Assembly: GCF_044704955.1 (NCBI RefSeq)
Contig: NC_091991.1
Location: forward strand, 50,530,001-50,594,000
Length of the DNA: 64,000 nt
Direction of reading: 5' to 3'
From: Pristiophorus japonicus
Lineage: Eukaryota
Positions 33,380-43,655 of the stretch are shown one piece after another (positions within the stretch are counted from its first letter, which is position 1; each line of letters begins with the position of its first letter). The notes beneath the pieces are model-generated. The model ran no database searches, was not told the DNA's origin, and saw nothing but the letters and a program-made list of their open reading frames with translations. The position numbers were made by a program, and so were the translations under genes.

Positions 33380-34140
33380 GCCTTCTGATGGAATACTTCG
33401 GAAACCGATTGGCCTGCCTCCTGGATAACAGCTTTCGGCTGAGTTTCAGGAGCAGCGCTGAAAAGAGACAAGACTTGGATGAGGTCTCAATCGTGGCTTT
33501 CAAAGGGGAGCTGGCGAACACTGCGGGGGAGGGGAGAGGGGATGGTGGGACTAGTTTAAGTGCTCTTGCAGAGGCCCGACAGGCCGAATGACCTCCCTCT
33601 GTGCTGTAACCATTCTGTGATGTCGAAGACCTGGACTTTGCAGTGCCGAGGTTTTGCTGCCTGTGTGAAGGGGAAGCGAGGACAAGTTGCAACACGTTCC
33701 GCCCCAGTGTTGCAGTCTTGCCCGGGGTCACATGACCGGCCCGGCCCCGGGGCCACATTCGAACCTTTGTTCCCGATACAGTTTGGCGCCAAAGCCGCGG
33801 ACGCTGACACCTTGCAGCAAGATCCCAGCACAAGGGCAAAGATGTGTTGGTTTCCAACAGCTGCAGCCGCGCCGTGTTAAAGTGGATCAGGGGGCATGCT
33901 TTACCGTCGGTGCACGGTGTGAACAAGTTTCCTGTGCAGCGGAAAGGGGCGGGGAGAATTTTCTGCACTTCAGATTTCCCAGCAGCAGCGAGTCGGCGGG
34001 CCGTGGACATTGTACTCCGGCGATCAGGGTGAGTCACGGGAGCTCGCTGCCCGGTCGTATAGTCGCCTATTCGAGGACCAAATGAGCGAGCCCTTTTACT
34101 GGGCTTTAAACTTGCGGGAAGGCGCGGGCTGACAGTGGAA
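33380..34140 (+). promoter_or_regulatory. CpG island / putative BID promoter with GC box
   Basis: CpG-dense non-repeat stretch in an otherwise AT-rich background; GGGGCGGGG at 33946-33954 just upstream of the putative exon 1. Confidence 0.75.
33960..34028 (+). other. BID: Putative non-coding first exon of BID (5' end uncertain)
   Basis: Strong donor AGG|GTGAGT at 34028/34029, no ATG in the exon, and the next acceptor CTGCAG| at 34536. Confidence 0.6.
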
Positions 34141-34560
34141 GGAATAGATTTTTGTTTCGGCCAACTTCAGCTGCACCAGGTTCAACTGAAGCAAGGGGAT
34201 CATGCTGTAACTTCTGTGTATTGTCTGAATTAGAACAGCCGTAAAAGAACTTGCTTTGTTAATATTGGGAATGTTTTTTATATTTTTAGAAGAAACTTAA
34301 AACTATTTTGGCTTCCGGTCATTGCACTTCCTTATTATAAAAGAGCCAAGTTGTGCAGACCATGCATGAGTTTACTAATTTCTAATGTGTATATTACAAT
34401 AACCATCATTAACTATACTGTCAATTTGTATCGTTTAGGCCAAAAAAATCTTAGCGCAGCTAAGGTGGACTTGTTGCGTCTAATTGGTTTTTATTATACC
34501 TAACAGTTCCCATGTTCCTTTATGTTTAAACTGCAGGGCGAAAGAAGGGAGGTTGTAGAC

Positions 34561-34780
34561 ATGTCCCTGAACGTTGATGCTTCGTTTGACAAACAAACGC
34601 AATATATTTTGTTGAGATTTCTTCAGGAAAAGAAAGTTGAAAATGGTACCTACAAGCAAGAAATGCAGAAACTTGAGAAAGAAGTTACAAAGGGATCCAG
34701 TTTTGATGACGATATTCAGACAGATGGGCATTGCTCTCAGGAATCTGTTTTTCCTACAACCTTTGATGATTTGGAAGAAG
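34561..34780 (+). CDS. BID: BH3-interacting domain death agonist, coding exon 1 (exon starts at 34537)
   Basis: MSLNVDASFDKQTQYILLRFL...DDIQTDGHCS contains the caspase-8 site IQTD|G (mammalian LQTD|G); donor GAAG|GTATTT, phase 1. Confidence 0.88.
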
Positions 34781-34789
34781 GTATTTTAC

Positions 34790-36134
34790 TATAAGCCCAC
34801 TGACTCCCACGGCTACCTTGATTACACTTCCTTCCACCCAGTTTCCTGTATAGACACTATTCTATTCTCCCAGTGTCTCTGTCGCAACTGTTCTGACGAT
34901 GCCACCATCCACAGCAGTGCTTCTGATATGTCTTCCACTTTCCTCAACCCAGGATTCCACTCCACTGTGGTTGACCAGGTACTTGACTGTCTCATTTCAC
35001 ACACTTCTACTCTCACCCCTTCCCCTCCCTCCCAGAATCACAATAGGATTCCCATTGTTCAGAGTGGGGTGGATGGGTTGACTGCGCAGATGGCGGTTGG
35101 TGGATGTGGTGTGGTTGGCTTCGCGGGGGCGTGGCTCCGGGGTGGCCGGGGCTGGGGGCTCGACATCCGGGGGTGTTCGGCATTTGGGAAGGATTCTGAT
35201 GGGACGGGGCGGGTTGGGTGGGTCCGGAGCCGGGGCGGGGGGCACGCTCTTGGAATGGGGGGTGGGTTGTTTGGGGCTGGGATTGGGGGAGACTTCTTCA
35301 CTCGGGGAGTTGTTGGCCTGTGGGGTTCCCTGCCACGGAGAGTTGTTGATGCCAGTTCGTTGGATGTGTTCGGGACGGAGTTGGGATGTGGTCCTTGCGG
35401 CTGGGAGGTTGTGGGGGTGTGGAGGGGGGCGGGTGCTGGGGTGGGTGATCAGCCATGATCTTGTTGAATGGCGGTGCAGGCTCGAATGGCCTACTCCTAC
35501 ACCTATTTTCTATGTTTCTATGTCTTTACCTTTTACCCCACCAGCCTCCACATTCAAGGGAGCATCCTCCAGCGCGATGCCACCACCAAACTCATCATCC
35601 CCTCCCCTCTCCGCATTCTGAAAGGACCGTTCCCTCCGCGACACGCTGGTCCAGTCACCCGCTCCCCTCCCCACGGCACCTTCCCGTGCAAGCGCAGGAG
35701 ATGCAACACCTGCCCTTTCACCTCCTCCCTTCCCGTCGTCCAGGATTGCAAATACGCCATCCAGGTGAAACACTGATCAACTTTTACTTCTTTCAATCTT
35801 GTATACTGTATTCGCTGCTCACTATGTGGTCTCCTCTACATTGGGGAGACCAAACACAGATAGAAACATGGAAACATAGAAAATAGGTGCAGGAATAGGC
35901 CATTCGGCCCTTCGAGCCTGCACCACCATTCAATACGATCCTGGCTGATCATTCCCTCAGTACCCCTTTCCTGCTTTCTCTCCATACCCCTTGATCCTTT
36001 ATAGAATTGGGTGATCACATTGCTGAACGCCTCCCCTTCAGCCCACATGCGTGACCATGAGCTTCCGGTCGTTTACCATTTTAATTCTCCGTCCCACTCC
36101 CACTCTGACCTCTCTGTCCTCAGTCTCCTACACT
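34790..36134 (+). mobile_element. Penelope-like element (RT thumb plus GIY-YIG endonuclease), decayed and interrupted by CR1-derived inserts
   Basis: YKPTDSHGYLDYTSFHP; HGTFPCKRRRCNTCP; LVYCIRC..CGLLYIGETK (GIY-YIG). Inserts at ~35057-35523 and ~35859-36000. Confidence 0.88.
35057..35523 (+). mobile_element. Internally deleted CR1 derivative with dense A-to-G hypermutation
   Basis: Reverting G to A restores a CR1 APE N-terminus (NKVDELTAQI..NGYDV...TETWLQGDQGWELNIQGY..FRKD) fused to the CR1 3' end; it ends in the normal CCTATTTTCTATGTTTCTATG tail. Confidence 0.88.
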
Positions 36135-36139
36135 AGGAG

Positions 36140-37815
36140 TACATAGGATATACAGCACAGAAACCAGTCCATGCCAGCGTTTATGTTCCACTCGAGCCTC
36201 CTCCCGTCTTTCCTCATCTACCTCTATCAGCATAACCCTCTATTCCCTTTTCCCTCATATGCTCATCTAGCCTCCCCTCAAATGCATCTATTCTATTCGC
36301 TTCAACTGCTCCCTGTGGTAGTAAGTTCCACATTCTCACCACTCTCTGGGTAAATAAGTTTCTTCTGAATTCCCTATTTGATTTCTTGGTAATTATCTTA
36401 TATTGATGGCCTCTAGTTATGCTTTCTCCCCCCCCCCCCCCACAGTGGAAGCATTCTTTCTGTATCTACTCAATCAAAACCTTTCATAATTTTAAAGACC
36501 TCTATTAGGTCACCCCCTCAGCCTTTTTTCAAGAGAAGAGAGACCCAGCCTGTTCGTTCTTTCCTGATGGGCATACTCTCGCATTTCTGGTATCATAGAA
36601 AACAAAGACAGAAAATAGGTGCAGGAGTAGGCCATTCGGCCCTTCGAGCCTGCACTGCCATTCAATATGATCATGCAACTTCAGTACCCCATTCCTGCTT
36701 TCTCTCCATACCCCTTGATCCCTTTAGCCGTAAGGGCCACATCTAACTCCTTTTGAATATATTTAATGAACTGGCCTCAACAACTTTCTGTGGTAGAGAA
36801 TTCCACAGGTTCACAATTCTCTGAATGAAGAAGTTTTTCCTCATCTCAGTCCTAAATGGCTTACCCCTTATCCTTAGACTGTGATCCCTGGTTCTGGACT
36901 TCCCCAACACTGGGAACATTCTTCCTGCATCTAACCTGTCCAATCCCGTCAGAATTTTATATGTTTCTATGAGATTCCCTCCCTCATTCTTCTAAATTCC
37001 AGTGAATATAAGCCCAGTCGATCCAGTCTTTTGTCATGTGTCAGTCCTGCCATCCTGGGAATCAGTCTAGTGAACCTTCACTGCACTCCCTCAATAGCAA
37101 GGATGCCTCTGATTAGGAGACCAAAACTGTACACAATATTCAAGGTGTGGCCTCACCAAGGCCCTGTACAACTGCAGTAAGACCTCACTGCTCCTATACT
37201 CAAATTCTCTCGCTATGAAGGCCAACATGCCATTTGCCACCTCCACCGCCTGCTGTACCAGCATGCCAACTTTCAATGACTGATGTACCATGATGCCCAT
37301 GTCTCGTTGCACCTCCCCTTTTCCTAATCTGTCACCATTCAGATAATAATCTGCCTTCCTGTTTTTGCCACCAAAGTGGATAACCTCACATTTATCTACA
37401 TTATACTGCATCTGTCCTGCATTTGCCCACTCACCTAACCTGTCCAAGTCACCCTGCAGCCTCTTAGCATCCTTCTCACAGCTCACACTGCCACCCAGCT
37501 TGGTGTCATCTGCAAACTTGGAGATATTACATTCAATTCCGTCATCTAAATCATTAATGTATATTGTAAGTAGCTGGGATCCCACCATTGAACCTTGCGG
37601 TACCCCACTAGTCACTGCCTGCCATTCTGAAAAGGACCTTGTAAATCTTCTCTGCACCCTCTCTCGTCTTTTTATAGTATGGCGACCAGAATTGTACACA
37701 GTACTCCTTTATGGTCTAACCAAGGTTCAATACAGGTTTAGCATAACTTCACTATTTTTCAATTCTATCCCTCTAGAAATAAACCCAAGTACTTGGTTTG
37801 CTTTTTTATGGCCTT
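36140..37815 (-). mobile_element. Two nested CR1 3' fragments (younger copy ~36595-37640)
   Basis: RT ORF 37091-37699 ([28 protein letters not shown]); CR1 3' tails at ~36140 and ~36595. Confidence 0.85.
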
Positions 37816-42400: not shown

Positions 42401-42902
42401 GGACCGAGTAGTACAGGTATAGCGTCCCGAATGCGGAACTCTGAAAACCGGACATTTTGCACGTAGCTGATGGAGTTGTCCAGAATTCGGAATTATTGTC
42501 CGAAAACCGGACATTTTTGAGACAAAACCCAAAATCCGACACTGATTCGGTCGAGGATTCCGGATTTCAGACTATTGATTTTCTTTTCTGAAATCCGGAA
42601 ACCCCCCTACTTGTAGTGACAAAATTCCTGAAACCATTTAACTCACAATTTGATGAAGCAATGGGGGGAGTGCAGGGTTGTTCTAGATGGGTGAATTAAG
42701 ATGGGTCAAATGGCTTTCTTCATCCGTAATTGTCTTGTCATCTCAACCGTGACATTTTCTTATTGAAAATAAGTGTTCTAAAAACCTGTGTGAAGATATC
42801 ATAAATGTGACAACTGATTTGACTAAAAAATATATCTTTTTTTGATATTCAGATGTTCGTAGCTGAGTTTAAAAACAAAATTCCATGTCACTTTATTTTC
42901 AG

Positions 42903-43039
42903 GAAATCCAGCTGCTGAAGAATTGTACAGAGAAATAGGTGCACATTTAGCTCAGCTGGGAGACAGGCTGGATCAAAGTATAAATCGTGCCTTGGTTGAC
43001 GAATTTATCGTTGAGAATGAAAGGATTCAATCCCAAGCG
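42903..43039 (+). CDS. BID: BID coding exon 2 (BH3 domain)
   Basis: Acceptor tttattttcAG|, phase 1. Reads (G)NPAAEELYREIGAHLAQLGDRLDQSINRALVDEF (human IARHLAQVGDSMD). Donor GCG|GTGAGA, phase 0. Confidence 0.93.
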
Positions 43040-43099
43040 GTGAGATGCCATAATCTATTTACTCAGTTTTTAGAAAAGTACAGATGCTACAAGAACACT

Positions 43100-43655
43100 G
43101 TTTCAAGAACACTGGGATAGTGATTCTTTCCTTTGGCTCTCTACTTCTCAGAACACTTCTGCAACTGTCGACTTGTTTAACCAATCCTTTGCCTCTATTT
43201 TCAATATTCTTGTTCCCAATAAAACCATCACAGTAATTCCCCCAGTACAGCCCCCAACTTCACACTCTTGAGTCTGAAAAGTGTAAACTTGAGTATACCA
43301 ACACACACCTGGTTTAGCCATTTGTTACCAGATCTGACTTGACCACATCAAGCGTTACCTTGCTTTGTCTTCCTGTGTTATAACTGTCCACTAATCCAAG
43401 ATCATCTTGGAGGACAAGGACAACCCTGAGCTCTTTTTCTTTCTACAATCAGCCCTTTCTCCTGCCCCCTTCGCCCTCCCCTCAAATGCAAAAAGTGTAA
43501 TGAACCCATGGATCATCCGTGAAGCTTCCTCTGCTGCATACTCCCCTTACCTTTGCTTCAAGTTCCTCACCTTCTCTAATCCCAAGTCCTCATCTCTCTG
43601 CAGTTTCTCCCCTATCTTCCCCTTCTCTGCCCTCTATTAGCTCATCTTGTCCATG
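43100..43655 (+). mobile_element. Decayed L2 fragment
   Basis: Collinear similarity to the L2 region at 10230-10800 of this window. Confidence 0.6.

Follow-up and report, generated by a model that had tools for sequence, protein, structure and literature searches.

A dispersed CR1-derived family, with a member in a BID intron, that very probably descends from one ADAR-edited RNA

A-to-I editing of RNA is normally treated as non-heritable. The closest described germline traces of host deaminases are the APOBEC-edited vertebrate retroelements (PMC4866542, PMC3880073), which resemble the elements reported here in carrying clusters of a single type of sense-strand change, attributed to a host deaminase acting in the course of retrotransposition and fixed in the germline. 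As described in the sections of those papers available to us, the changes are G>A, arising from C-to-U deamination of the cDNA, and occur mostly in LTR elements, whereas here they are A>G with the footprint of double-stranded RNA, the element is a LINE, and one product has been amplified. ADAR does not appear in the available text of either paper, and lizard CR1 is given as free of significant G>A editing.

At the RNA level, ADAR hyper-edited repeat transcripts (Porath et al., PMC5625713, PMC4365171) are described, in the excerpts available, as having dense A>G clusters, depletion of G immediately 5' of the edited base, and an association with inverted repeats, as do the copies discussed below; those sites are RNA changes on an unedited genome, whereas ours are in genomic DNA. 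The same excerpts name chicken CR1 as a major ADAR target, report 200,171 sites in elephant shark brain, and give upstream-G depletion as the ADAR motif across all animals studied, with a 3' preference that varies (PMC5625713). Zaranek et al. (PMC2873906), in the accessible part of their text, report that A>G changes were not in excess in DNA traces of high quality. For RAV-1 and avian leukosis virus (cited in PMC8586724), A>G hyper-editing linked to ADAR has been described as passing through reverse transcription; according to the portion available these are infectious retroviruses known from single clones, whereas the present case is a germline LINE-derived family. HE1/HER1 and other SINE-LINE pairs (Ohshima, PMC3747384, in the part available) are likewise mobilised in trans through the 3' end of a LINE. 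The present family differs from these pairs in that no tRNA head was found (ARAGORN, 0 tRNA genes in 7 of 7 loci, all of which stop short of the true 5' end of the primary master), and in that its body is an edited, deleted copy of the LINE itself. Thus APOBEC-edited fixed retroelements and ADAR-edited CR1 RNA are known, and what would be new, judging from sequence, is ADAR-type editing in a germline LINE family. No germline ADAR-edited LINE copy or family was found in the open-access literature that was searched; the supplements of PMC4866542 and PMC2873906 may list A>G clusters.

The copy from which this work started lies at 35057-35523 on the forward strand of the window, that is, the whole stretch of 64,000 nucleotides that was analysed. 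The initial annotation had placed it in BID, and this is borne out by matches to PF06393 on both sides, one of 25.8 bits at 42863-43117 (cut-off 25) and one of 17.2 bits, below the cut-off, at 34504-34791. The former is a frame containing the BH3 exon of BID, downstream of the insertion. The latter covers an upstream exon at 34536-34781, which has AG/GT ends and coincides exactly, with 0 differences, with a contig from sequencing run X5; a plausible splice donor is found further upstream, near 34029. Both exons are on the forward strand, so that the copy has the same orientation as BID. The insertion breaks another repeat (34790-35056 and 35524-35860), and contigs of paralogous copies of this repeat join across the site. 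We take the host repeat to resemble a Penelope-like element; Pfam gave no match to it.

The composition of the copy is as first described: the segment 35061-35450 holds 36 A, 0 TA and 2 AA in 390 nt, and the surviving As follow G (26), C (8) or A (2), and never T. The TA-free run, at 35044-35492 (448 nt), is the longest in the window except for one that crosses a masked N stretch. Three edited motifs, at 35220, 35315 and 35364, recur in unedited form among the other CR1 copies in the window. When the focal copy is set against the majority base of the parent CR1 copies, it shows 80 A>G changes and 44 As kept, against 6 G>A, 2 T>C and 9 C>T. The changed As are distributed by 5' neighbour as 22/22 after T, 18/22 after A, 18/24 after C and 20/40 after G (Fisher p=1.3e-4), which is the neighbour bias that had been predicted for ADAR.

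The alignment to CR1 had been understood only in part. The segment 35195-35523 does correspond to the CR1 3' end, but 35057-35194 comes from the beginning of the ORF2 endonuclease, likewise edited (31 A>G, 12 As kept, 0 T>C; PF03372 on the parent ORF). The two are joined at a deletion junction (35193-35194) with 2 nt of microhomology, at which ~2.35 kb of ORF2 is missing; by inspection, this is not a GT-AG splice junction. Downstream of it are the edited end of ORF2 and 3' UTR (35195-35446, with private deletions of 27 and 8 nt compared with the family described below), an essentially unedited CR1 3' hairpin zone (35447-35506, from which 8 nt are missing) and an unedited tail of 8-nt tandem repeats (35507-35523). 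The copy is thus a 5'-truncated member of a hyper-edited, internally deleted CR1-derived family.

In parent copies ~2.35 kb separates the two segments. The parent ORF2 encodes an apurinic-type endonuclease (PF03372, E 2.6e-11, on copy L064) and a reverse transcriptase (PF00078, E 1.7e-29, on copy L066), these being two different copies, neither of them intact, which is the organisation expected of a CR1 LINE. In the parent ORF1 a GDS motif is visible, and Pfam found no match to this frame. The 3' end forms a hairpin (z -2.58, in copy L002, and -2.25) followed by an 8-nt microsatellite, as in CR1; in the focal copy the hairpin z is +0.20. The 8-nt repeats are close to the amniote CR1 octamer quoted in the available part of PMC8665684.

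A search of the genome (5.9 Gb), whose repeats seem to resemble those of cartilaginous fish, with the focal copy gave 2,459 candidates, of which 40, including the focal copy, were scored as near full-length alignments. The focal copy is 84-90% identical to the other 39, and ~97% identical to the family majority outside indels. Thirty family loci were extracted, and they are A-poor to the same degree as the focal copy. A 19-nt motif across the junction has 1,173 exact matches in the genome (control, 0), and an edited 3' motif has 1,297 (control, 0). Since the 3' motif is kept exactly in 23 of 40 junction-bearing copies, the family is estimated at ~2,250 copies. The edits are common to these copies, and hence editing happened once, in a founder RNA, and not at BID. 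This is where the original proposal needs correction: between the focal copy and the family majority there are no more than 3 A>G, 4 G>A and 5 C>T changes, besides three deletions, and the Gs of the focal copy were therefore already present in the master. It is one daughter of that master, and no function is implied.

These numbers bear on whether the pattern could be an artefact of assembly or base-calling. The sequencing runs examined consist of contigs, from which strand and expression cannot be read. Contigs with edited sequence come from three runs, which belong to three studies and two organisms: X1 (organism A, and possibly the same sample as the assembly), X5 (another sample) and X8 (organism B). 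In X8 there are 99 nt of edited sequence with 4 differences, and two 60-nt pieces with 2-3 differences. Among the pieces listed for the three runs, X1 included, no contig spans the focal insertion and its flanks, so that the site itself is unconfirmed by reads, and this speaks for an artefact. Against it are the contigs of edited sequence, and the more than 1,100 exact junction matches at unrelated loci, where each copy carries its own CpG-type decay; an artefact can practically be discounted. X5 behaves like RNA, given that one of its contigs is exactly a BID exon, but is not on record as such. Run X9 (organism C) has no contig cover on 35105-35433, and hence has no bearing on absence.

The longer family copies have a constant anatomy. 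From 5' to 3' there is a minisatellite with a 37-38-nt unit (55 units in L125, 78 in L081), then an unedited spacer of ~165 nt, followed by an edited portion of inter-ORF and endonuclease sequence (335 nt). After the junction come ~290 nt of edited 3' sequence, and the element closes with an unedited hairpin and tail of 90 nt. Copies are truncated at many points on the 5' side and end in the CR1 tail, and all 23 minisatellite arrays inspected begin inside the minisatellite. The family thus has dispersed copies, a LINE 3' end in common, variable 5' truncation and no intact ORF, which is what is expected of a non-autonomous element mobilised by a LINE. SVA-like composites also have a minisatellite in their 5' part, and 5' transduction from a secondary source, as does this family. 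The mean non-CpG divergence from the family majority is 2.9% (94 copies), the G runs differ in length between copies, and a minor, older group retains several donor-like bases. Taken together, the sequences show that the family descends from one edited RNA, very probably edited by ADAR, its body being an edited, deleted LINE copy.

The spectrum of the family was obtained by comparing the majority of the 40 copies with that of the parents, of which 20 were extracted and 18 used for the 5' segment and 8 for the 3' segment. It comprises 145 A>G with 80 As kept, 7 G>A, 1 T>C and 6 C>T. The unedited parent motifs occur 16,151 and 161,401 times in the genome as exact matches, which sets the direction as A>G and not G>A. 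Sense-strand G>A clusters of the APOBEC type are absent (7 G>A against 145 A>G). Within the edited zone 142 of 205 As are changed, with the order of 5' neighbours T 29/30, A 53/67, C 30/42 and G 30/66 (p=7e-7), or fractions of 0.97, 0.79, 0.71 and 0.45; in RNA terms this is the U>A>C>G order of an ADAR product, on one strand. No 3' G preference is seen in the family (p=0.52). The minisatellite and spacer keep their As, and editing ends at the edge of the CR1 homology.

Two other ways of producing such a spectrum have to be weighed. Reverse-transcriptase misincorporation under a skewed nucleotide pool, or GC-biased drift of the master, might be considered, in that the copies arise by reverse transcription and vary in their G runs. 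They fail to predict the order of 5' neighbours, the near-lack of T>C, or the sparing of loop (see below), spacer, minisatellite and tail within one molecule, and we consider them most improbable. Only slightly less improbable is an adenine deaminase acting on DNA, either ADAR on an RNA:cDNA hybrid or a post-insertion process. A:T to G:C hypermutation of viral DNA with TA favoured has been described in Bigelowiella natans (bioRxiv 10.64898/2026.01.13.699255, as far as the part available describes it), where T/A>C/G changes fall at TpA; here too TA sites are the most edited (28/30 to TG), and antisense-edited CR1 pieces exist (L223, L224). Against this, deamination of first-strand cDNA should appear as sense-strand T>C, and a process acting on double-stranded DNA should leave changes on both strands, while only 1 of 30 TA sites became CA; this strand asymmetry already disfavours a DNA deaminase. 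The Bigelowiella changes are moreover in integrated DNA and at TpA only, according to the same portion of text, whereas here AA, CA and GA are edited as well, and the edits are strand-specific and confined to paired RNA segments.

This confinement is clearest at locus L224 (767-1677; G000:C15:11419329-11420239), an insertion inside another CR1. Read along one strand, it opens with ~850 nt free of edits, followed by an antisense CR1 arm (54 A>G), an unedited loop of 60 nt and a sense arm (58 A>G) that ends in an unedited tail. Upstream G is depleted in both arms, and the antisense arm is edited where it lies opposite the tail, while the tail itself is unedited. Editing of both arms on one strand with the loop spared fits a double-stranded-RNA deaminase followed by tail-primed reverse transcription, and is predicted neither by cDNA deamination nor by a double-stranded DNA process. 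Although it is one locus, it is the strongest evidence for a deaminase of double-stranded RNA, and together with the spectrum, strand and neighbour bias it strongly supports the original idea that a hyper-edited CR1 RNA was reverse-transcribed and integrated. The edited arms of L224 contrast with its loop and unpaired part, and the candidate donor considered below also has an inverted partner, so that editing is confined to what would be double-stranded in RNA. At locus L223 (1497-1848; G000:C9, near 13248150) an antisense CR1 piece of 350 nt carries 53 A>G and adjoins a sense CR1 that spans the same interval and is unedited. The antisense piece lacks 5'-G depletion (12/16), and the locus is unexplained.

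It had been asked whether further copies share edits from one master or are independent, and both are found. A motif containing three A>G changes has 43 matches in the genome, 9 of them family-like, against 6 for a control with three G>A and 4 for three T>C, all counts being set against the 161,401 unedited motifs. Twenty of the 34 non-family loci were extracted, none of which has the family junction. In 15 of the 20, A>G exceeds both T>C and G>A outside the motif (binomial tests, p<0.01), while 5 fail one or both tests, and none of 10 unedited controls is skewed. The patterns of edits differ between loci (median Jaccard 0.42, highest 0.75), which come from at least two CR1 subfamilies, and the pooled order of 5' neighbours in all 20 is again T>A>C>G (0.50, 0.46, 0.36, 0.24). 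We therefore think it likely that ADAR editing together with CR1 reverse transcription is a recurrent mutational route in the germline, which would have left hundreds of independent fossils, whole hairpin RNAs edited in both arms among them, and founded the family of ~2,250 copies; the total in the hundreds is an extrapolation, because one motif catches only some of the edited copies. Among 798 CR1 segments in 1.03 Mb, a set biased towards the family, no other edited lineage was flagged, and weak flags on L064 and L067 are tentatively attributed to decay in the reference copy. Two of four matches to the antisense motif (L222, L225) are background, and the antisense editing suspected in the L014 flank was dismissed, the spectrum there being balanced. 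Around L241 (G000:C13:194.21-194.28 Mb) one independently edited CR1 motif occurs in four neighbouring copies, probably through local duplication; L241 itself has 7 edits in the hairpin zone.

A donor for the family was sought through its unedited junction. This has 0 exact matches in the genome and 112 with two mismatches allowed; among those listed, 30 loci comprise 29 of the edited family and a single unedited one, a CR1 at G000:C18:40836886-40838582 (+) with the same breakpoints. A further candidate on C6 proved to be unrelated sequence. Relative to the C18 copy, the family shows A>G at 138 sites, G>A at 9 and T>C at 3. An inverted CR1, which starts after a further 250 nt on the downstream side, matches it at 85% across both segments, and in the predicted fold 334 of 369 nt of the 3' arm are paired, including 87 of 92 nt in the terminal zone. 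The C18 copy with its inverted partner is thus a probable donor hairpin. The positions of the edits show no relation to local mismatches in the duplex of donor and partner (p=0.74), and As opposite C are edited in 6/6 cases against 114/169 for others, with 7 confounded sites dropped.

It is possible, though a good deal less probable, that the chemistry was as proposed but the C18 copy was not the donor, being instead an ordinary CR1 that took its junction by repair templated on an edited copy 7.6 kb off, the real donor being lost or unassembled. Such a repair would account for the presence of an edited copy so close by. What the C18 copy has specifically in common with the family, the junction and a T>G change found in 2 of 43 copies, is contained in ~20 nt, and in overall closeness to the family the C18 copy ranks 18 of 43, no nearer than other copies of the subfamily. 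On the other side, the repair requires a templated tract of less than ~25 nt that removed 2.35 kb, because the As 10 nt before and 15 nt after the C18 junction are unedited. The C18 copy also belongs to the right subfamily (14 of 43), and its inverted partner covers both segments. We retain the C18 hairpin as the probable donor.

The edited neighbour (L163, G000:C18:40846205-40847134) lies on the strand opposite to the C18 candidate. It is a granddaughter of the family, produced by 5' transduction via a copy on C13 (G000:C13:148747652-148751400; L197, L198), and its nearness to the candidate donor, which has a probability of ~0.6% by chance, is unexplained. L163 was rejected as the master, as the C13 copy has a longer 5' flank in common and sits inside a low-copy hAT remnant with both terminal repeats present. 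The C13 copy gave rise to two 5' transductions, of 1.3 and 2.3 kb, which reached C18 and C4. On C4 the transduced copy is found in eight tandem segmental duplicates ~62 kb apart (132.27-132.71 Mb, L169-L176), each with a transduced family copy and differing in minisatellite length. Since the C13 copy begins in mid-minisatellite, it looks itself like a daughter and a secondary source. The primary master was not found among the loci examined.

The initial annotation had noted an unedited end of ~70 nt, and had suggested that only RNAs with such an end can still move. The end is indeed unedited, with 1 of 17 As changed in the last 90 nt of the family (p=2.7e-7), but its length is 90 nt in the family and ~77 nt in the focal copy, which has lost 8 nt of the hairpin. 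In the 20 independent copies, TA sites are edited at 160/265 in the body, 4/40 in the hairpin zone and 0/50 in the tail. The suggestion thus holds for the tail and only in part for the hairpin zone, where 4 of the 20 have 5-8 edits. With 87 of 92 terminal nucleotides of the candidate donor paired, lack of a partner fails to explain the unedited end. It may reflect selection by CR1 protein, or protection under it. Stringent 3' recognition by LINE machinery (PMC3747384, PMC8665684, in the sections available) is in line with a spared tail.

On the basis of these observations, we hypothesise the following sequence of events. A CR1 lacking ~2.35 kb of ORF2, probably that at C18:40836886-40838582 with its inverted neighbour 250 nt away, would have shared a transcript with an inverted CR1, and this RNA would have folded back into a long double strand. 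ADAR, the enzyme to which the signature points, would have deaminated ~70% of the As in the paired part. The reverse transcriptase of an intact CR1 may then have recognised the unedited 3' hairpin and tail, reading inosine as G, and a cDNA of 700 nt would have been inserted into germline DNA behind a minisatellite. As the copies show, this locus became a non-autonomous master, whose RNAs of minisatellite, spacer, edited CR1 and tail gave ~2,250 copies, truncated to different extents on the 5' side; one daughter at least (C13) turned into a secondary source. Many further CR1 RNAs, each edited independently, probably became fixed as single copies by the same route. We regard ADAR-type hyper-editing of a CR1 RNA, followed by reverse transcription, germline insertion and amplification of a master, as very likely the correct reading. 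A point against it is that human L1 RNA is reported, in the available part of PMC5224506, to be unedited by ADAR1 in cell culture.

If this is correct, the germline appears to have taken up A-to-I edits on many occasions, and in one case the product was amplified into a family; this provides direct natural examples for the old question of RNA edits flowing back into genomes. The fossils would record past germline ADAR activity and its motif, in a form that could be dated, and would amount to a mutagenesis screen, performed by nature, of the signal recognised at the CR1 3' end, revealing which 3' bases are needed. As the edited body is ~70% identical to its parent, repeat annotation would miss or misdate such copies; with a three-letter scan, the question can be put to any genome rich in repeats.

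Two further features of the window are worth recording. A C-rich tandem repeat with a period of ~100 nt, at ~1400-2340, adjoins the masked stretch. In addition, two unedited CR1 3' ends lie in inverted orientation less than 1.4 kb from the focal copy (35858-35965 and 36604-36921), and could pair with it in BID pre-mRNA.
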